A stretch of 64,000 bases of DNA, from NCBI GenBank assembly GCA_963663865.1, contig OY760686.1, positions 2,176,001 through 2,240,000 of the forward strand. Reading direction: 5' to 3'. The stretch's first letter is position 1. Each line of letters opens with the position of its first letter. Source of the DNA: Spirochaetota bacterium. Lineage in GTDB: Bacteria > Spirochaetota > UBA4802 > UBA5550. This document shows, piece by piece, positions 52,967 through 63,506 of the stretch. A program made the translations under genes and the position numbers. The notes beneath the pieces were generated by a model that saw only the letters and a list, made by a program, of their open reading frames with translations, had not been told where the DNA came from and ran no database searches.

Positions 52967-53494
52967 ATGAAATCATCAAACTTAGAGAATATTCAAAAGG
53001 ACCTCAAAAAGATCCGTTCCGCGGCCGCAATTATTCTCCGCGAACTTGAGGTTGACGATATCAGGCATAAGCTTGAGACTCTGAAAAAACTTGAAGGACT
53101 GCCTGAGCTGCCGGTTGACAGCGTAACGAGAGAGCTAAAAGAATACGCCGAAACAAGGGACGTTTACAAGCGCCTTTACACGTCTTGCGCGAGGACCATT
53201 ATGACAATCATATCTTCGAATTTTTTAACCGGGACAGGAGATCCGGCAAACTCCTTTAACTACTCTGAACCCCTCGCGCCCCTGCAGGCTGCACAGATGA
53301 TTGCGTTCCTTCCAAAGGCATATATGGGAGGCCCGATAAAGGCAGCAGCGGCAAGCCAGTTTCCGAATGTCCGCGATAAGGCCGCGGAATTCTACGACAG
53401 CCTGCCCCATGAGATGAAGTACTCCGGCTCTTTCCCTCCCGGATTCAGGAATTACATAAGAACCCTCAAGTCAACAGCAGCGGCTCACAACTGA
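52967..53494 (+). CDS. Hypothetical protein
   Basis: AGGAGG RBS and its own terminator; no family recognised. Confidence 0.75.
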   Translation: MKSSNLENIQKDLKKIRSAAAIILRELEVDDIRHKLETLKKLEGLPELPVDSVTRELKEYAETRDVYKRLYTSCARTIMTIISSNFLTGTGDPANSFNYSEPLAPLQAAQMIAFLPKAYMGGPIKAAAASQFPNVRDKAAEFYDSLPHEMKYSGSFPPGFRNYIRTLKSTAAAHN

Positions 53495-53508
53495 GCCGCT
53501 TTTCTTTT
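53479..53508 (+). terminator. Rho-independent terminator overlapping the stop codon
   Basis: AGCGGCTCA-caac-TGAGCCGCT perfect 9-bp stem followed by TTTCTTTT. Confidence 0.75.
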
Positions 53509-53700: not shown

Positions 53701-53913
53701 ATGACCGAACAGCAATTACTTACCGATCTTGCAGTTGCCGAAAGAAACATGAAGCGCAAATCGAGCATTTACAGCATAGATTTTTTTAAGAATGTTACTG
53801 ATGCTTTCAAAATGACCCGGACGAACTCCTTTGCAGACCTGATAAAAACAGATCCGCAAAAGGCACTCGCCCTCAGAGATCTTGCAGTGAAGGAAAAGCT
53901 TCTAAGGCCATAG
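53701..53913 (+). CDS. Small hypothetical protein (70 aa)
   Basis: AAGGAG RBS; converges on the macroglobulin gene. Confidence 0.7.
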   Translation: MTEQQLLTDLAVAERNMKRKSSIYSIDFFKNVTDAFKMTRTNSFADLIKTDPQKALALRDLAVKEKLLRP

Positions 53914-53914
53914 G

Positions 53915-56900
53915 TCAGTCCTTTTCCCTTACTTCAATCAGGGCAGGCTTCGACCAGCCCTGAACTGACGGTTCGTACATACACTCCATCCGGGCAGGCC
54001 GCGCCATGTAGATGCCCGGCAGCTCGGCGCGTATGGTGTAGCCGATTTCATAGACCTCGCCTTTTTTAAGACTGTGTAGAAAGTATATTACCCTGTTATC
54101 CCACCGCTCAGCCCTGAATTCTCCAGCACCAAATGCGTCAGTGTCCGCAACCTCAAATCCCGACGGCAGAAAATCCTCCAGCATCAGATATTCAAAATCA
54201 TCCTGCGCGGTGAATCTAAGCTTAACCAAAATCTCTTCACCCACATCCGCAGCCCCTTCTGAAGGCGAAGGAACCAGATACTCTCGGCTTGAGATATCTT
54301 TCACTCTTGTGAGAGACTCAAAGGTTCTGACGAGACTAATTCCGTTTGAAAGCGAGTCAAGCGCGCCCTTCTCACCTCCGGAAAGCGACTGCATCAGTCC
54401 TTTTTTGAAGTAGAGGGTGCCGCTTACAACCGCTTCATAGGCTATTCCCTCAGCGCCCTTTCCTTGAGCGACAACGGTTAATTTCTGCGGATTAATCTTA
54501 TCGGTCAAATCAACCACTGCCGTCAGTGCTGAGGCAGCTGATCTAACAGCGGGATCATAGCTTATCGAAGCTGCATCCCTTCCATTTAACTTAAACTGTG
54601 CTATAAACGGCCTTCCAGCCGATACACCGGCTTTTTCCAGATACTCGCACGCTGAATATATAACCAGCGACGTCTCGCGGGTCGATGACCAGCGCCCCTC
54701 TCTGCTTTCGGCCATAAGGGTTGACATTGCCCCCGCCGGAAGCTCTCTCTCGCCGGCCGAGACGAGAGCGCGCATTGCCCTTGCCGTTATTTCAGTCTTT
54801 CCGCCTGGCCATCCGTACCTCTGGCCACCAACAGCTTCCCAGTATATTCCTGAGCCGTCCTTTTTGACAAGGGATATGAGCTCCTTCACAAGCCGCCTGT
54901 AATCGTCTTTTAGTTCAGCCGCATCCCCGTTCTTATTATTAATTCCTTTTCCTCCTACCCTGGACGACAGGGCTGAAAGAAGCATTGAAGCGCCATACGG
55001 ATTCTTAGAGACGGATTTGCTCAGCGAGGCGTAAGCCTTATCGTCCCACTTGCCGTAAAGCGAAACAGCATAAAGAAGATATGCCCTCTCATCAATCCGC
55101 TTAGGGTCAAGGTCTGAGAGCATTCTGCCGGCAGCCTGAAGGCCGTCCTTAAGTGTGACGATGTTCACCGAGTGGCCCTCCCGCGAAGCCGCGTACAGGG
55201 ATTCAAGCACAAACCCTGTTAAAAAGGCGTTTCCTCTGTCACCTGACCACCAGCCCCAGCTGCCGTCGCTGTTCTGAATTGTTGTGATTCTGCGAAGCCC
55301 TGCGGCGGTCTTTTCTTTAACCTTTGCGACGTCAGCTTCATCCGCTAAATGCAGAAGATTGGTTTTTTTCAAAAATGAATGCAGCCTCATAACGGGCATG
55401 AAGCTGTTTACTGTTTGCTCAACACAGCCATAAGGGTACCTTATGAGATAGCCGGATGACTCTACAAGTTTTATCAGAGGCGTAGGGCTTACAGATATCT
55501 TCAAGGTTTCCGGAACAAAGTCAAAACCGGAAATATCCCTGACAGACTCCAGCTTCAGCTCAGAGGCTCCGATGACTCCTGTTCCCTGTATCTTATACAG
55601 TGAACCACGGCGCTCAACTGGTATAGTGATTTTAACAGCATCTGAAACACCGCTGCCGGCATCGGCTGTGTATTGCATGTCCACTGCCTTCGGGCCTGAC
55701 GGCACTTCAAATCTGAAGAGCTCCCGCGCCGCTCCGAACGGCGGAAGGCTCATTCGAACCTCTTTTGCAGGCTTGAGTTTTGATCCGGCAAGTCTCATAT
55801 CAGTCCCGATCTGAGTCATTCCAGCAGAAGTGTTGCTGTTCACCAGGCCGAGGCATGACGCGCTGTCGCCCTCAACCATGAAGCGCGGACTTCCGATTCT
55901 GGCGATAAGGTCCTGTGTACACTTAAACTTTCTCTTCGTCTCACCCATCCTTCCCGATTTATCATGCCCTCTTGCTGTTATGCGCCAGGTAGTCAGATTG
56001 TCGGGCAGCTTAAAGCTCACGGCGGCCCGGCCGTCTTTGCCTGTACGCACGCGGGGATTCCAGTATGCTGTATCCTCAAACTTTTCGCGGACCTTGATTT
56101 TACCGTCCTTGCCCGCTCCGGCGAGCACATTTACCGGATATGAGTACGTGGTAAGTACCCAGTTTGATATTTTTGAATAGAAGAAGTCTCTCATGTGCGG
56201 AGTAAAATCACTGCGAATACTGTAAATGGCCTCATCAACAACTCCTATCGATATGTCAGAGGAAACCGGCATGCCCTCCCCGCTCAAGGTCCTGACATTA
56301 ATTTTTACTGTTTCACCGGGCAGGTAGCTCTCTCTGTCTGGTTCCGCTGTAACTTCAAGCTCTGTTCCCTCAACCGGGATGGACACCTCTGATGATGCCG
56401 TAAAGAGGGCACGCTTCTGCTGAAGTATAGCCGAAACATAGAAGTTCGGCGCCCAATCCTGCCTCGCGTGAATTACAACGGGCATTACATTGCCCTTCAT
56501 GCGAACAACTTTCGACCAGTAAATATCCTTACCCTCAGCTGTAAGAAGGACGTGGGCGTCAGGGTAGCGTGTCTTCAGAAGGCAGGTGATGTCTCCGTCG
56601 GTTTTAAGCTCATTAGTACTCAGCTCCATTTCAAGGTTTTTAAATCGGCTGTCGACCCTGCCTCCGTGAGGGTGATAAACCCACACCACCCTTGAAGCTG
56701 TAATGCGGTTTCCCCTTTTATCAAACCCGCTGACTATAATATCGTATTCACCATAACGGCTGAAGTCCTTCGTTATATTAATATCCGCCGAACCTTTTGA
56801 ATCAGTCGTGATTTTACCCGAAAATACCGGACGGCTGTCATGAACGTAGACCCTCTGATACGGCTTCCAGATATAGGGGTACATCTCAACCTTGAGATCG

Positions 56901-59248
56901 GCCCTGACCGGCTGGCCGGCCTGGTTCAGTGTTTTAAACGCAATTTTTTTGCCGGCCCCGGCCTCAAAGAAGTTTGCCTCAGGATCAACCTTTATATAGT
57001 ACTCGCCTCTTCCGACACGCACAGAGGCAGAGGATGTAATACTGACATTTGATGAATCTGTCACAGTCACTTCAACCCTCACCTCCCTGTCATAGGGATA
57101 GTTGCCTGCCTCAAGCTTCAATGAAGCCATGCCGTTTTCGTTGAGATACTTCTGGCCGTCAAGCCTCAGGCGGCTGTAGCCGGAGGAGCCGGAATCGTCC
57201 TCTTCCCACCAGTATGTGGTCTCGCTGTCCTTCAGGCGGGTTTCGTAAAACCGGTAGCGCATAACAGAGTCTTTTACAGGAGCTCCGAAGAAGTATTTGG
57301 CGTCGACCCTGAACTCGATATCATCCCCATTAATAAAGAACTCCTTAACCGGAGAGGCTTCGACCTTGAACTCGGGTTTCCGGTACTGTTCGGCATAGAA
57401 CCTTCCCGACGCGTAGAGGTTTTTTTCAGCAGGCCCCGCCTGAATAACATAGGCGCCAAGTCCCCAGTCAGCCTCAAGCCTGACCGTGGAAGACCATGCG
57501 CCCCACTCGTCAAGAGTCCCCTGCCCCTCTAAAACCGTACGGCCATTGCCGGTATTTACTATTTTGAAATAAACCGGGGCCGGTTTCATGGGCACAAAAA
57601 GACCTGCAGCCTGTTTGCCTACAACCTTGAAATGTACGGTGTCGCCGGAGCGGTAAACCGGCCTTTCAGTGTATATCATGTACTTGTTTTTTTCCTTCTC
57701 GAATGCCGAAGCCGATCCGGTATTGCATATCGCGTAGCTGCCGTCAGGCGACACTGCGAGCACCGAAAGCCTCTCAGCGCTGCCCAGCGTGAAGGCACAG
57801 GTTCCGCTGCTGTCAGTCACTGATCTTCTTAAAACCCTGTACGGCAGATCTTCAATATTCTCAGGATTGGTTGTTTTTTTTCGTTTGCTTCCCGGATCGA
57901 AAACAAGCACTGAAGCCTTTTCAAGGGGTTTGCTTTCAACAAGGTCGGTCGCGTAAACGAACACTCCGCCGGGGGTCCGCTTCGTTACGATGCCAATTGA
58001 TGTCACAGTAAAAAAGCGCCGCTGGTAGAGCCTGCCTGCGCCTCTGATATCAATACAGTATCCGCCGGTTGGCAGGGCCTCCTTGATTGAAAGAGTGCTG
58101 TACATCCAATCATAGGGTTTAAATCTTTCGATCGGCTCCTCCCATGAGGCAACCTTTTTAAAGCCGCGTGCATCATCTCCGGCACCATAGCTGAAATTGT
58201 CTCCTCCCGCAATTGACGCCGGCGGAACGCTGTAGACCGTTACGTTAACAGTCTCAAGCCTGATAGTCCTCAGGCTGAACTCAAGCTTGTTTCCCGGGGC
58301 AAAGGTGTACCTGTAAGAATGGAGGTGAGCCTCAGGATTTCGTGGCTCTGCTGTAAAATTGCTGTCTTTTATCTCAACACCTTCAGTTAAATTAATATCA
58401 ATCTTTTTATCGCATGTAAATCCCTGGTGGGTCATATACAGCTCATATCTGCCGGGCTTAAGGTCTTCAATAATGTATGTTCCGTCGTCAAATGTCTGAG
58501 CCGAATGATATTCCCGGCCTCTGGCCGTCACCCTGATTCCGGGGGCGGGAATATTAAGGCCTCCTATCATGACCTTGCCGCTGATGGCCGAAGGTCTGTA
58601 CAGCTTCATTGGCAGTTTGGTCTTTTCTCCCGCTTTCACTGAGTCAAGAGAAGCCGTCTCGGTTATATGCCCTGCCTTTGCAAACGAGAGGCTGTACGCG
58701 CCGGATGGCAGCCTTCCGAACCTGTAACTGCCGTCATCATTTGTTATGTAGAATTCAGGCTTTGATGAGCTGTAGGCCCCATAGCCCCTGTTGAGCCTGA
58801 CCTCGGCGCCCTTTACCGGTTTTCCAGAGGAATCAGTCACGGCACCTTCAATTACGGCTTCCGGTGCAAGGCTGATCTTGATATGCCCCGGTGTTATTAT
58901 GCCTTCGGAATTGTAGTCTACATAGCTTTCAGCCTGAACAGCCATGACATATTTAATGCTCTTTATAAATCCGGTTATCTCGAAGACTCCATCGCTTCCG
59001 GAAAGGGCTTTGTAGTAGCCCACGCCCATGTTGGCGTTCTTTATCTCTACGGCCGCTCCTGAGATGCCCCTGCCGGTGACTGAATCAACGACCCTGCCTG
59101 TTATAGTTTCCGAACTGGACAGCTCACTGCCGCCGCCGTAAACGCGTGTGCCGTCCTTTCTGACTTTAATATCCGTTCCGGCACAGGAAACTGCCGCAAA
59201 TAAAAGCAGCATAAATCCAGCGGTTTTCATCCTGTCGGCTGTTCTCAT
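53915..59248 (-). CDS. Bacterial alpha-2-macroglobulin lipoprotein with thioester motif and N-terminal carboxypeptidase-regulatory-like repeats
   Basis: Lipobox AVSC; three beta-sandwich repeats (ITGRVVDS, IEGAVTDS, ISGKV); MG2 YTERPVYRSGDTV and YRKPEF; REKFEDTAYW, LPDNLTTW, PYGCVEQ, QNSDGSWGWW and EDFLPSG motifs. Confidence 0.95.
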   Translation of the reverse strand: MRTADRMKTAGFMLLLFAAVSCAGTDIKVRKDGTRVYGGGSELSSSETITGRVVDSVTGRGISGAAVEIKNANMGVGYYKALSGSDGVFEITGFIKSIKYVMAVQAESYVDYNSEGIITPGHIKISLAPEAVIEGAVTDSSGKPVKGAEVRLNRGYGAYSSSKPEFYITNDDGSYRFGRLPSGAYSLSFAKAGHITETASLDSVKAGEKTKLPMKLYRPSAISGKVMIGGLNIPAPGIRVTARGREYHSAQTFDDGTYIIEDLKPGRYELYMTHQGFTCDKKIDINLTEGVEIKDSNFTAEPRNPEAHLHSYRYTFAPGNKLEFSLRTIRLETVNVTVYSVPPASIAGGDNFSYGAGDDARGFKKVASWEEPIERFKPYDWMYSTLSIKEALPTGGYCIDIRGAGRLYQRRFFTVTSIGIVTKRTPGGVFVYATDLVESKPLEKASVLVFDPGSKRKKTTNPENIEDLPYRVLRRSVTDSSGTCAFTLGSAERLSVLAVSPDGSYAICNTGSASAFEKEKNKYMIYTERPVYRSGDTVHFKVVGKQAAGLFVPMKPAPVYFKIVNTGNGRTVLEGQGTLDEWGAWSSTVRLEADWGLGAYVIQAGPAEKNLYASGRFYAEQYRKPEFKVEASPVKEFFINGDDIEFRVDAKYFFGAPVKDSVMRYRFYETRLKDSETTYWWEEDDSGSSGYSRLRLDGQKYLNENGMASLKLEAGNYPYDREVRVEVTVTDSSNVSITSSASVRVGRGEYYIKVDPEANFFEAGAGKKIAFKTLNQAGQPVRADLKVEMYPYIWKPYQRVYVHDSRPVFSGKITTDSKGSADINITKDFSRYGEYDIIVSGFDKRGNRITASRVVWVYHPHGGRVDSRFKNLEMELSTNELKTDGDITCLLKTRYPDAHVLLTAEGKDIYWSKVVRMKGNVMPVVIHARQDWAPNFYVSAILQQKRALFTASSEVSIPVEGTELEVTAEPDRESYLPGETVKINVRTLSGEGMPVSSDISIGVVDEAIYSIRSDFTPHMRDFFYSKISNWVLTTYSYPVNVLAGAGKDGKIKVREKFEDTAYWNPRVRTGKDGRAAVSFKLPDNLTTWRITARGHDKSGRMGETKRKFKCTQDLIARIGSPRFMVEGDSASCLGLVNSNTSAGMTQIGTDMRLAGSKLKPAKEVRMSLPPFGAARELFRFEVPSGPKAVDMQYTADAGSGVSDAVKITIPVERRGSLYKIQGTGVIGASELKLESVRDISGFDFVPETLKISVSPTPLIKLVESSGYLIRYPYGCVEQTVNSFMPVMRLHSFLKKTNLLHLADEADVAKVKEKTAAGLRRITTIQNSDGSWGWWSGDRGNAFLTGFVLESLYAASREGHSVNIVTLKDGLQAAGRMLSDLDPKRIDERAYLLYAVSLYGKWDDKAYASLSKSVSKNPYGASMLLSALSSRVGGKGINNKNGDAAELKDDYRRLVKELISLVKKDGSGIYWEAVGGQRYGWPGGKTEITARAMRALVSAGERELPAGAMSTLMAESREGRWSSTRETSLVIYSACEYLEKAGVSAGRPFIAQFKLNGRDAASISYDPAVRSAASALTAVVDLTDKINPQKLTVVAQGKGAEGIAYEAVVSGTLYFKKGLMQSLSGGEKGALDSLSNGISLVRTFESLTRVKDISSREYLVPSPSEGAADVGEEILVKLRFTAQDDFEYLMLEDFLPSGFEVADTDAFGAGEFRAERWDNRVIYFLHSLKKGEVYEIGYTIRAELPGIYMARPARMECMYEPSVQGWSKPALIEVREKD

Positions 59249-59249
59249 T

Positions 59250-59855
59250 TCACAACTCCTCTTTTCCCTTTTTGATGATCAGAGTAAACGCTCTGAAGGC
59301 ATATATTGAACTATCCCCTGTCCGGGGTGAAATCTTCTCGAGATACTCATGCGTCTTTATCTCTGCGGGAACGTACACAGTTGAAGTTCCGGAAGTCCCT
59401 TGAAAAACAACTCCAAAAGTTTTAATATTTACCGAGGATAAATCTCTCACCGGAACCGGCCTCTCCGCGACCGTAATGATGATCTCTGAGTCCGACAGCT
59501 CTTCAAGCTTCAGGGGCTCATACCTGGGGTCACACCTCAATGCGCCGTGAAGGTATTCGCGAATGACTTCATCCGTGCTTCCCGATGGATAAAATGAGCC
59601 GTAGCATCCCCTCACCCGGCCCCGATACCTGATAGTGACGAAAAGCCCCGACTCAGCCGCCGGGAGCTCCGGTCCGGAGTACCCCGGTACATCACCACGA
59701 ATTATTCCTTCCGCGGCTTCGTAAAGCCAGCATCGAAAACCGATGAACGCGGTGCTGTCTTCGAGGGGCTTCCACTCCGAACGGACATCCTCAGCTGCCG
59801 CCGAAGTGGTAAGCATAACCGCTGCGAGGAGCATTATCCACCCCTTGATTTTCAT
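59250..59855 (-). CDS. AMMECR1-domain protein with signal peptide
   Basis: GLFVT...VRGCYG and DPRYEPLKLEEL motifs; N-terminal signal peptide ending SAAA. Confidence 0.82.
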   Translation of the reverse strand: MKIKGWIMLLAAVMLTTSAAAEDVRSEWKPLEDSTAFIGFRCWLYEAAEGIIRGDVPGYSGPELPAAESGLFVTIRYRGRVRGCYGSFYPSGSTDEVIREYLHGALRCDPRYEPLKLEELSDSEIIITVAERPVPVRDLSSVNIKTFGVVFQGTSGTSTVYVPAEIKTHEYLEKISPRTGDSSIYAFRAFTLIIKKGKEEL

Positions 59856-60562
59856 TGATACCTCACTGGCGGGTAGAAGTCACGGTATAAAAGCGAACGG
59901 TCAATCAGCTTTTCTCCCCTGTAGCGGTTGCGGAAAACCAGAACTGTGATGCCGTTGCGAATATTCTCATCATCGCCGAAGGGTATCTGCATGTGCTCTT
60001 CTTCAGTTTCAACACGGTATGTAAACTTAAACGGGCCGGGGGACACAATCATTGCTGTAAGTGTATTGCCGGTAAGATTCATGTGAATAGTTATATCGTG
60101 ATCAGATATGTTTTTAATTTTGAGATCCTTCTTGCCGTAAAGGATCGTGGCGTCAAGGCCAAGGGGCACATAGCTGACCGGCTGATAGTGGCGGTGTCTT
60201 TCGACGATCGACAGCCCGGAGTTTATTAACGCGTTAAACAGCGTTGACGAGACCTGGCATACACCGCCTCCGGGCTCCATACGAAGCGTATCGGCGTAAA
60301 GTACAGCCCCGTCCACAAAGCCGTTTTCCGCTGAAGCCTCGCCCGCCACCGCGTTGAACGAGAATACTGAGCCGGAACGTACGACTGTTCCGTCGACCTT
60401 TGAAGCAGCCAGCTGAATGTTGCGCTTTACTCCCGGGGCCTGTCCATTAACCGACGTTGCGAAGGAGGCTATGATGACCATGCCGTCCTCTTGACCGGGA
60501 ACCGGATATGAATACAGGGCGGCCGAGGAGAACACTACGATAATAAAAATAATACGTGTCAT
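59852..60562 (-). CDS. VanW-domain exported protein
   Basis: RNIQLAA, FSFNAVAG, GGGVCQVSSTLFNA, ERHRH, YVPLGLDAT and DLKIKN motifs; signal peptide from MTRII. Confidence 0.9.
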   Translation of the reverse strand: MTRIIFIIVVFSSAALYSYPVPGQEDGMVIIASFATSVNGQAPGVKRNIQLAASKVDGTVVRSGSVFSFNAVAGEASAENGFVDGAVLYADTLRMEPGGGVCQVSSTLFNALINSGLSIVERHRHYQPVSYVPLGLDATILYGKKDLKIKNISDHDITIHMNLTGNTLTAMIVSPGPFKFTYRVETEEEHMQIPFGDDENIRNGITVLVFRNRYRGEKLIDRSLLYRDFYPPVRYQ

Positions 60563-60689
60563 GTGCTTGATTTTCTCACGAAGAAGCGCACTGTCAACTC
60601 TATTTTGGCTGGTTCTGATTGAGGAAGAGCCGCCCAAACGCCCACCGGGTAGTGAAGCGCATAAGCTATAACAGCGGCTGTTGCGTTTT

Positions 60690-61091
60690 TTATTCTTTTA
60701 CCCAGTTCTCAAGCTTCAGACCTTCTACTCTTTCAAATTCTTTTATATTGTTCGTAACAAGAATTAATTTTTTTGACTTTGCCTGTCCCGCAATCAATAG
60801 ATCCTTTGGTCCAATTAGCTTGCCTTTTGTTTCTAAATCTGTTTTAATTATTCCGAATTCGACAGCATCAGTATCATCAAACGGCAAAATAATAAAGATT
60901 GATAAAAACTCAATCAAAGCTATTTTGTTCTTTTCTGGAAATTTACTATTCGCAACTCCATATTCCAGTTCAGCAATTGTTATTGATGAAACATAAATGT
61001 CTTTCTTTGATTTTGTTTTTAATGTCTTTAATACATCAACCGGCTTCTTCTTAATGATATTAATACAGATATTCGTATCCAGCAAATACAT
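60690..61091 (-). CDS. vapC: VapC PIN-domain toxin
   Basis: YLLDTNI, ITIAELEYG, IGPKDLLIA and LVTNNIKEF motifs. Confidence 0.95.
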   Translation of the reverse strand: MYLLDTNICINIIKKKPVDVLKTLKTKSKKDIYVSSITIAELEYGVANSKFPEKNKIALIEFLSIFIILPFDDTDAVEFGIIKTDLETKGKLIGPKDLLIAGQAKSKKLILVTNNIKEFERVEGLKLENWVKE

Positions 61092-61303
61092 CAGAAATTT
61101 TCTCTTTTTTGATTTTCACCTTAATCACGGCTTTCTTTCATGAAATCATCAGTAAAATTATTCAGCCCATGAAGAAATACTTACCAGGATTTATTATGAG
61201 GAAGTAGAATCACGGCATCTCCAACTTTTTGGATAAGCACATCGTTGCCGGAAAATTGAAATTCTTTAGGTAAGCGTACTGCCTGCCCTCGGTTTTTAAT
61301 CAT
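61091..61303 (-). pseudogene. vapB: VapB (AbrB/MazE-type) antitoxin pseudogene
   Basis: QAVRLPKEFQF...W*VFLHGLNNFTDDFMKESRD*GENQKRENF: in-frame TAA at 61181-61183 and 61121-61123, N-terminus shortened, TGATG overlap with vapC. Confidence 0.9.
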
Positions 61304-61636
61304 TTAATTCCTTATTAATCTTCTTAAAATTATATCTTCGAAATTTCTTCTAGAGTCAATCATTGAAAGAATATATACTTTATGTTCTTCGATTCTATAG
61401 ATTATTCGCCACGGAGTTATAATCAACTCCCGATAGTTGCTAATATTATGAAAATCAAGTTCAGGAATAATCCTTCCTCGTTCAGGATAATTTTCTAATT
61501 TAACCGTTTGCTTTTTAATTTTTTCAAATATTTTTTCAGCTATATTCAGGCTGTCGAATGAAATATATTCAATTATTTCAATAAGATCATCTTGTGCCAA
61601 CCTGGTCCAGAATACAGTATATTTTTTTGATGTCAT
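61304..61636 (-). CDS. RelE/ParE-family toxin
   Basis: WTRLAQDDL...YPERGRIIPEL...YREL...WRIIYR pattern. Confidence 0.9.
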   Translation of the reverse strand: MTSKKYTVFWTRLAQDDLIEIIEYISFDSLNIAEKIFEKIKKQTVKLENYPERGRIIPELDFHNISNYRELIITPWRIIYRIEEHKVYILSMIDSRRNFEDIILRRLIRN

Positions 61637-61640
61637 AAAC

Positions 61641-61919
61641 TTATCTTTTTTTTAGAATTTTATCTTCAACAGAAGAAAAAAATGTGCTCTGCTCAATAAA
61701 TTTTCCATTTTTAACATCTTTTTCTCCCATCGAAATTAATTTAAAAATTCTTATCGCATTTTGCATCGAATCATAGCTCTCGGTATCCATTAATACAGCC
61801 TTTGCTTCACCATTTTGAGTAATTATTATTGGTCGATGGGTTTCGTTTACTTGATCCAGCATGTTTGCAGCATTTGCTTTTACAAAAGAAATTGGGCGTA
61901 TATCTTGTTTAGTATTCAT
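61641..61919 (-). CDS. Phd/YefM-family antitoxin
   Basis: DIRPISFVK...PIIITQNGEAKAVL pattern; directly upstream of the toxin. Confidence 0.92.
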   Translation of the reverse strand: MNTKQDIRPISFVKANAANMLDQVNETHRPIIITQNGEAKAVLMDTESYDSMQNAIRIFKLISMGEKDVKNGKFIEQSTFFSSVEDKILKKR

Positions 61920-62144: not shown

Positions 62145-63506
62145 TCATTTCTTTCCCTCATATTTTGACCAAAAGCTGTATTTGCGGCCATGGGCCTGCA
62201 TAATTTGATCTTTAAAGGCAATATTATTACTATGATTTTCCCAATCATCAACATATATGGACATTTTGTCCAACTTCTTTAGATACCGGACTCCATGGGG
62301 ATAGGCTTTGGTATAACCACGCTCCAGAATAGATACCAGCAAACTCCGGTAAATAAGGCTGGACGCAAGATGTCGCTTTTCTGATTCCATAATTTCTGCC
62401 AATGGAATAAGGCTTCCATAAAAATTACCGTCGAATTGCTCAGCTCGCTTTATGAGATATTCTTCGGCTTCATTGATCTTTCCTGTTTCGATCAGAAACC
62501 CTGCATCCGATAAACAAAGGCTTTCGTTTTTTAAAATTTGTGCCACCTCAACAGCAATGACTTCATCCCTTTTATCATGTCCAATCACATCCAGAAGAGC
62601 CTGCAGGGTGTAGGTTGAGTGGTAAGATTTGAATTTATGAAAAAGAAGTTCTGTCAGCTTTTCTGTGTCGCCCTGTTTTTCATAAATTTCCTGAAGAAGC
62701 TTGTCCCTTTCATATGCCTGAAATGTTTCTCCCTTCGGGATTTTTTTGAGCCATAAGTATGCTGTTTCAACATCTTCGTTTTCCAGATATACCTGGGCTA
62801 TATCAATGAAAGCCGCAGTGGAAAGCTTTCCCCATGAAGCAATTCGAGTTTTTTCAAACAGTCTGGCATCACCAATCTGTCTGGCCAGAGATTCAATAAG
62901 CATCAGATGATGTCTCTTATTATAATCCGCGCTCTCTTTGTCAGCCCGTAACTGCAGTACTGTAATCATTCTCCTGACAGCATCTTCGGGCAGACATTCT
63001 CCGGCGCAGGCAATCAAAGTATCCCGGATACCGTAATCATCCTTTTGATTTACTTTAAGGATAATTTCGGCGACTTTTTCCTTATCAGCACAACGAGAAG
63101 CATAGTCAACAAACAGCTCCCTGGCATCATAGCGGAAGACATCACCAATATTTCCATTGGAATCATCGCACATTTCAAAGATAACATTGTCAGCCTCGTA
63201 AAAAGAAGCTACCATTTCCATGCCGGTTAAGGGGTCATCCATACCTGCCTTCAAATCCTTCAGAAGCATTTCCAGTTCCCGGGCAAATCCATCTGCACCA
63301 TGCCAATCGATAAAGCGTCTGGAACGCTTAAGGCCGGAGAGTTTCTTTCAGAACCGCTGAACATTTTCCTTCGGCGGTGCAATCAGTCGTTCTATCAAAT
63401 CATCAGCTTCATCAGAACTTAACGAAAGGTCCAGAAGCGCGTCCGCAAGAACTTCCGGACCTTGATCAATCAATTTCTCCCTGCGGTCATTCCCTGAGTT
63501 TTCCAT
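62145..63506 (-). pseudogene. Helical-repeat hypothetical protein (DUF6880-like) interrupted by a nonsense codon
   Basis: Frame continues upstream of the 374-aa ORF to ATG 63506 with a single in-frame TGA at 63348-63350; CDDSNGNIGD and HGRKYSFW motifs. Confidence 0.78.

Follow-up and report, generated by a model that had tools for sequence, protein, structure and literature searches.

The 64,000-nucleotide (nt) stretch of Spirochaetota bacterium contig OY760686.1 analyzed here (the window; positions 2,176,001 to 2,240,000 of the forward strand) carries on its minus strand three coupled genes that encode, in order, a VanW protein, an AMMECR1-like protein with a predicted export signal, and a thioester-type alpha-2-macroglobulin (A2M). 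We conclude that this set is a genuine variant of the bacterial A2M operons, both conserved and unpublished, and that the secreted AMMECR1 is its most interesting part. The first-pass annotation of the window had called the set undescribed, and no description of it was found in the full-text literature that we searched (supplements excluded); among the matches listed, none linked VanW or AMMECR1 to a macroglobulin. The presumed task of bacterial A2Ms is to guard the periplasm, and a third partner set, with a predicted Cys-based L,D-transpeptidase at its core, would tie the newly recognized VanW enzyme family to envelope defense in diderm bacteria. The AMMECR1 family is widespread, disease-linked through a human disease gene, and biochemically unassigned. 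A member that works outside the cytoplasm, where there are few possible substrates, and that has two fixed partners is a practical handle on the function of the family.

The coupling of the three genes, taken in order from the open reading frame (ORF) list, was read directly from the sequence as first annotated. The vanW stop and the AMMECR1-like start share a 4-nt ATGA overlap at positions 59852-59855, which reads tatcaATGAaaatc, and the AMMECR1-like stop is separated from the A2M start by a 1-nt gap at 59249, which reads gttgTGAaATGaga (gene coordinates are given in Table 1). For vanW, the choice of the ATG start agrees with the N-termini of the orthologs, and the TTG is the outer limit of the frame. 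A promoter match precedes this ATG, but a scan of the region returned 19 promoter-like sites versus 9.5 expected, so the match is weak evidence. No convincing minus-strand terminator was found 3' of the A2M gene. As noted previously, the next gene downstream is convergent, and no pbpC follows.

We searched 401 Spirochaetota genomes with each of the three proteins and cross-tabulated the coordinates of the matches. At a subfamily threshold of E<=1e-17, which leaves a clear gap to canonical AMMECR1 proteins at 53 bits or less, the AMMECR1-like subfamily was found in 48 of the 401 genomes, and the orthologous A2M was present in the same 48 and in no others. These A2M orthologs are about 1790 amino acids (aa) long; most full-length matches are 42-52% identical, and the most distant one (G290) is 33% identical. 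A VanW ortholog was found in 47 of the 48 carriers, and in the exception the AMMECR1 gene starts at the first base of its contig. For 34 of the 48, the three genes share a strand and are no more than 300 nt from one another. The first-pass annotation had tied its proposal to the recurrence of the trio in other genomes, and the trio does recur. Of the 40 genomes of the window's own family (the window's genome counted), 29 are carriers; the remaining carriers belong to sister families within that order, apart from one genome in a different family. Of 39 sampled genomes of the window's family, 11 (including five from genus g4) lack the whole set.

The AMMECR1-like alignment, used as a search pattern on species-representative genomes, yielded 24 loci, 22 of them labeled Spirochaetota, Spirochaetes, or Leptospirales, one Cloacimonadota, and one Syntrophorhabdus. 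By tblastn, vanW, AMMECR1, and A2M stand in this order at 13 loci, AMMECR1 and A2M occur without an adjacent vanW at 5, vanW and AMMECR1 occur without an A2M match on the locus at another 5 (one of which, L019, ends at a contig edge just after the AMMECR1-like gene), and the AMMECR1-like gene is alone on L011, a short contig of 3.3 kb. The distance from vanW to AMMECR1 is 30 nt or less, or an overlap, in 25 of the 26 loci that hold both genes; nine loci have the identical 4-nt overlap, and start/stop overlaps are conserved at 26-51% protein identity. Two loci were binned outside Spirochaetota, namely L011 (Cloacimonadota) and L027 (Syntrophorhabdus), and the rest of the A2M is also present in the L027 genome, G401. 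Among 181 sampled genomes of the G401 phylum, only G401 matched at E<=1e-15, which fits transfer and mis-binning alike.

The genes are also retained where their order is broken. In six genomes (G188, G198, G307, G319, G391, and G394), vanW lies 23-51 kb off or on another contig, and in genus g30 three genomes have the vanW-AMMECR1 pair behind smc and the A2M gene at another place; all genes are kept in both situations. This retention after dispersal is a stronger argument for a unit than the co-occurrence counts are, and together these observations support the trio as a conserved unit and not a chance neighborhood. The g30 type loci (L010, L013, L015, and L018) carry a radical-SAM/LAM_C gene, smc, a gene for a 330-aa protein of no family, and then the vanW-AMMECR1 pair, with A2M on another contig. 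The same g30 genomes hold a second A2M, 27% identical, in a cluster with DUF2135, transpeptidase-like, and SpoIID-like genes (L039). Outside the main order, L040 (G290:C18) has a complete vanW-AMMECR1-A2M trio at 26-35% identity, and L041 (G035:C219) has a divergent adjacent vanW-AMMECR1 pair ended by the contig edge, in a genome beyond the 48.

Export signals had been assigned to all three products, and we also predict them: a lipobox on the A2M, a Sec-type signal on the AMMECR1-like protein, and a hydrophobic helix on VanW. All were called with a motif and hydropathy heuristic, not with a signal-peptide predictor. The A2M, whose gene is single in this genome, has the Pfam domains MG2, A2M_BRD, A2M, TED_complement, and bMG10, all above cut-off, and three CarboxypepD_reg-like repeats at its N-terminus ahead of the MG domains. 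Its closest relatives in the PDB by sequence are E. coli YfhM and the Salmonella A2M. The translation agrees with the intact CVEQ motif reported in the first-pass annotation, and CxEQ is kept in 24 of 24 aligned full-length orthologs; thioester reactivity and protease trapping are predictions from motif and domains. The lipobox, LFAAVS-C22, predicts a lipoprotein from the motif alone and is present in most aligned orthologs. At the C-terminus, the protein ends in a short Lys-containing tail, VREKD.

The VanW protein, also encoded by a single gene in this genome, matches Pfam PF04294 with 151.4 bits versus a cut-off of 27, over profile positions 4-129 of 130. Its N-terminus, MTRIIFIIVVFSSAALY, is predicted from hydropathy to form a signal or anchor helix, and 21 of 21 aligned orthologs have an N-terminal hydrophobic stretch by the same heuristic. 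Residues C102, H125, and D137 are invariant in the 21 orthologs and are candidates for the catalytic triad. The C-terminal 70 or so residues resemble G5 domains. VanW domains had been described in the first-pass annotation as poorly characterized, which is outdated given that they were shown in 2024 (PNAS; PMC11348318) to be L,D-transpeptidases with an essential Cys and a proposed Cys-His-Asp triad. That paper also describes them as meropenem-inhibited and scarce outside Gram-positive bacteria (PMC11348318). The AlphaFold2 model of our VanW (predicted local distance difference test [pLDDT] score, 88.3) had no whole-domain match in the PDB, the same outcome as reported in PMC11348318. Like C. 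difficile Ldt4 and Ldt5 (PMC11348318), the protein has a full-length VanW domain with the conserved Cys, His, and Asp, a predicted extracytoplasmic location, and a G5-like domain after VanW; unlike them, it is without a PG_binding_4 domain and, at 236 aa, far smaller; it also belongs to a diderm, and its gene is coupled to AMMECR1 and A2M genes. We predict from these sequence features that it is an L,D-transpeptidase. The NCBIfam vanW-gen equivalog scored 88 bits versus a cut-off of 365, which does not make it a vancomycin-cluster VanW, and no van genes were found near vanW. A search for longer VanW proteins, with a ceiling of 2000 aa, returned no A2M fusion among the best 120 of 1255 matches; these 120 are 458-728 aa long and mostly of PG_binding_4 + VanW + G5 composition. 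One metagenomic VanW protein of 527 aa (P0071) has a Big_2 domain and a stretch similar to BiPBP_C, the C-terminal domain of PBP1C, that scored 25.7 bits, slightly below the 26.8 cut-off, and it was not used.

The AMMECR1-like protein matches Pfam AMMECR1 (PF01871) with 66.5 bits versus a cut-off of 25. Motif and hydropathy predict a Sec-type signal at its N-terminus, MKIKGWIMLLAAVMLTTSAAA/ED (...TTSAAA/ED), and an N-terminal hydrophobic stretch was found by the heuristic in 24 of 24 aligned orthologs. A word-based search returned few relatives, every one with an N-terminal hydrophobic leader, and the ESM Atlas returned AMMECR1 clusters only. The AlphaFold2 model (pLDDT, 90.7) has the family fold, with a Foldseek probability of 1.0 to 1zq7, 1wsc, and 1vaj, and residues R82-G83-C84, D109, R111, P163, and E165 are invariant in 24 orthologs. 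The protein thus shares with the AMMECR1 family members PH0010 (1vaj), MM0484 (1zq7), and ST0229 (1wsc) both the fold and the RGC and DPR motifs, which the PDB alignment identifies as those of the family. It differs from the family in its predicted signal peptide, in being co-encoded with envelope proteins, and in scoring far below the cut-off of TIGR04335 (AmmeMemoRadiSam protein A; 46.3 bits versus 99). No Memo or radical-SAM neighbor was found by Pfam at the window locus, and a second, canonical AMMECR1 (188 bits) is encoded elsewhere in this genome. For cytoplasmic AMMECR1, one paper proposes transfer of a group to a base in RNA by means of the conserved Cys (PMC4075521). Such an RNA-modification role cannot apply to the AMMECR1-like protein because it is, by prediction, secreted. 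A complex prediction for VanW (residues 24-236) and the AMMECR1-like protein (residues 22-201), each supplied as an alignment, gave a score of 0.00 (mark, 0.32), which speaks neither for nor against a complex.

In relatives of this genome, the A2M gene is followed by a fourth gene of the module, which encodes a 650-730-aa fusion of a SpoIID/LytB domain with a penicillin-binding protein (PBP) transpeptidase. The fusion product was matched downstream of A2M at 15 of the 24 loci and at three of six further loci from close relatives. Across the 401 genomes the gene is present in 37, all 37 of which carry the module (37 of the 48 carriers), usually with the gene directly after A2M. The 15 fusion orthologs compared all keep SxxK, SxN, KTG, and the GLGHG motif of SpoIID without change; 14 of them match Pfam Transpeptidase and 7 match SpoIID; matches to NCBIfam SpoIID_LytB range from E 1e-16 to 1e-18. 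DUF2300 was not matched in the fusion (Pfam at E<=1, NCBIfam at E<=0.01), and thus no kinship to YfaQ was seen. The fusion gene is missing from this genome and from its three closest relatives (G325, G340, and G382), in all of which the fusion has nothing better than weak matches, to SpoIID-like genes that stand alone and to housekeeping PBPs, and tblastn found no remnant of it in the window at E<=1. The convergent 70-aa ORF occupies the site where most relatives have the fusion gene. The usual module is therefore one of four genes, and this genome has a reduced three-gene form.

The fusion gene also changes how the module compares with known A2M contexts. The genome (1 contig, 98% complete) was checked for pbpC, and because no BiPBP_C domain was found in the whole of it, we conclude that pbpC is absent; its four class A PBP (Transgly) genes are all far from the A2M locus, and its one YkuD gene is elsewhere. 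The first-pass annotation had proposed that VanW and AMMECR1 replace PBP1C. As worded, this part is not supported, since the usual module keeps a PBP-like partner: with the fusion in 37 of the 48 carriers, VanW and AMMECR1 accompany such a partner rather than replace it. Its proposal of a third partner set, distinct from the pbpC and yfaS contexts, agrees with our results, and the vanW/exported AMMECR1/A2M set is a third A2M context. To our knowledge, pbpC and the yfaS/mag cluster are the only A2M partner sets in print, and other Spirochaetota carry both. The E. coli yfhM-pbpC pair (ECAM and PBP1C, "type I") has the same kind of lipoprotein A2M with CxEQ, bait-region domain, and MG10, co-encoded with a peptidoglycan cross-linking enzyme, as predicted here, and a classical pair of A2M and Transgly/transpeptidase genes is found in other Spirochaetota (the pbpC-like locus L042). 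Unlike in that pair, the cross-linker here is a predicted Cys-based VanW and not a Ser-based class A PBP, pbpC is missing, the partners are encoded upstream, an exported AMMECR1 joins the set, and the A2M has the three extra N-terminal CarboxypepD_reg repeats; relatives of this genome have the SpoIID-PBP fusion instead of a GT51-TP-BiPBP_C protein. The "type II" clusters, E. coli yfaA-T-S-Q-P and the P. aeruginosa mag operon, are likewise multigene envelope operons built on an A2M, and occur in other Spirochaetota as DUF1175-A2M-DUF2135x2-transpeptidase-like (L036, L037, and L039). In contrast, DUF1175 and DUF2135 genes are missing by Pfam among the neighbors in the window.

We favor, with middling confidence, the reading that the set is the three-gene form of a conserved spirochete envelope module that traps proteases and mends the wall in the periplasm, as the third variant of the A2M operon. 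The genes are coupled, co-occur, and are retained when dispersed, and the export signals and the catalytic and thioester motifs are intact. A protease that had crossed the outer membrane would cut the bait region of the periplasmic A2M lipoprotein, which would then capture it covalently through the CVEQ thioester. Covalent protease capture is what E. coli YfhM has been proposed to do. The Cys-His-Asp site of VanW would form 3-3 (L,D) cross-links to strengthen the peptidoglycan or seal it anew, and VanW would thereby do the work ascribed to PBP1C within the yfhM-pbpC pair. Where relatives carry it, as most do, the SpoIID-PBP fusion would add glycan cutting and D,D-transpeptidase or carboxypeptidase chemistry, and it may supply the tetrapeptide donors that an L,D-transpeptidase needs. 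The AMMECR1-like protein, which keeps the predicted active site of its family (RGC, DxR, and PxE), could at a guess assist in cross-linking, as a Cys-dependent accessory enzyme or as a cofactor; we ranked it as such because it is most tightly coupled to vanW.

Several points weigh against this trap-and-mend reading. Even for A2M with PBP1C, the trap-and-repair role is a hypothesis, AMMECR1 has no assigned reaction, and the roles we propose draw on sequence and analogy. The fourth gene is missing here, so any steps that depend on the fusion cannot operate in this genome. Four of the seven foreign VanW proteins assayed in PMC11348318 had no L,D-transpeptidase activity, and a VanW domain alone is therefore no proof of activity; PG_binding_4, found in about half of VanW proteins, is missing here as well. 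Because the sampled genomes are related, and because the two surveys share part of their sources, the counts are not independent, and the joint loss of adjacent genes can stem from one deletion.

We considered that VanW could instead attach the A2M, or the complex of A2M and protease, to the peptidoglycan via a Lys in the C-terminal tail of the A2M, which we judge unlikely. E. coli YkuD-type L,D-transpeptidases attach Braun's lipoprotein by its C-terminal Lys, and here too a predicted A2M lipoprotein is encoded beside a predicted L,D-transpeptidase. The A2Ms of the module extend past the last strand with Lys (VKKK, VKKKD, VQKK, VREKD, and similar), and 23 of 24 have a Lys within the last five residues, whereas six non-module spirochete A2Ms stop at the strand (...EINVQ, ...EILVD, ...ITINE, and similar). 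However, three of these six likewise carry Lys among their last five residues, which makes for a weak signal, and only about half of the module A2Ms end on Lys itself, the one in this genome ending on Asp. Attachment chemistry is not known for VanW enzymes, and such anchoring would leave no role for AMMECR1 or the SpoIID-PBP fusion.

Similarly doubtful is a housekeeping role, in which the A2M, rather than defending against foreign proteases, would act within a morphogenetic machine of VanW, AMMECR1, and SpoIID-PBP, either as a scaffold or by inhibiting periplasmic proteases or autolysins of the cell itself. Three of the four module genes encode wall enzymes or are coupled to one, and the placement of the g30 vanW-AMMECR1 pair after smc, apart from A2M, would suit such a machine. 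Against this, the thioester and the bait-region domain are strictly kept (24 of 24), which points to covalent protease capture, and the set is dispensable, given its absence from the 11 same-family genomes described above.

For the AMMECR1-like protein itself, a somewhat less probable option is that it is a periplasmic Cys-dependent enzyme acting on acyl or thioester intermediates, for example by handing stem peptides to VanW, by editing them, or by coupling the activated A2M or captured protease to the wall. If true, this would be the first assignable reaction of the AMMECR1 family, helped by a substrate-poor compartment, and would define a trap-and-tether envelope immunity module. Finally, it is very improbable that the set reflects only inherited gene order in one clade with no shared function: the carriers do fall almost wholly in one order and the sampled genomes are related, but all genes are kept where the order is broken, start/stop overlaps persist despite protein divergence, the set recurs on contigs that were binned to other phyla (L027 with genome G401, and L011), and all four families are restricted to one and the same group of carrier genomes.

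Table 1. Features in and around the vanW-AMMECR1-A2M operon, in window coordinates
Feature	Position	Strand	Remarks
vanW ORF	59852..60637	-	Frame open up to TTG at 60637; ATG at 60562 gives 236 aa
AMMECR1-like gene	59250..59855	-	201 aa; ORF list
A2M gene	53915..59248	-	1777 aa; ORF list
CVEQ thioester motif	55415..55426	-	Translation RYPYGCVEQTVNSF; GCVEQ at residue 1274
VanW Cys102	60257-60259	-	GGGxCQVSS
VanW His125	60188-60190	-	ERHRH
VanW Asp137	60152-60154	-	GLDATI
AMMECR1-like Cys84	59604-59606	-	VRGCYG; predicted catalytic
Sigma-70-like promoter match	60570..60597	-	TTGACA-16-GAAAAT with TG; just upstream of vanW ATG; consensus match only
Convergent 70-aa ORF	53701..53913	+	No family; downstream of A2M; marks operon 3' boundary
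175-aa protein gene	52967-53494	+	Between pepN and A2M; without Pfam or NCBIfam family
Hairpin terminator	53479-53500		Strong; ends the 175-aa gene
VapC PIN toxin gene	60690-61091		Toxin-antitoxin pair one
MazE/AbrB-like antitoxin fragment	61181-61303		40 aa; pair one
ParE toxin gene	61304-61636		Toxin-antitoxin pair two
Phd/YefM antitoxin gene	61641-61919		Pair two
DUF6880-family protein gene	62145-63269	-	374 aa; past the toxin-antitoxin genes

Among the neighboring genes, the 175-aa protein has homologs of 39-54% identity near A2M in the two closest relatives (L030 and L031), which also lack the SpoIID-PBP gene. On the other side of the operon, directly upstream of vanW (60690-61919), lie the two type II toxin-antitoxin pairs. 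Their stretch has a G+C content of about 30%, versus about 50% in the surroundings, and looks like an inserted islet; the gene for a DUF6880-family protein lies beyond them.

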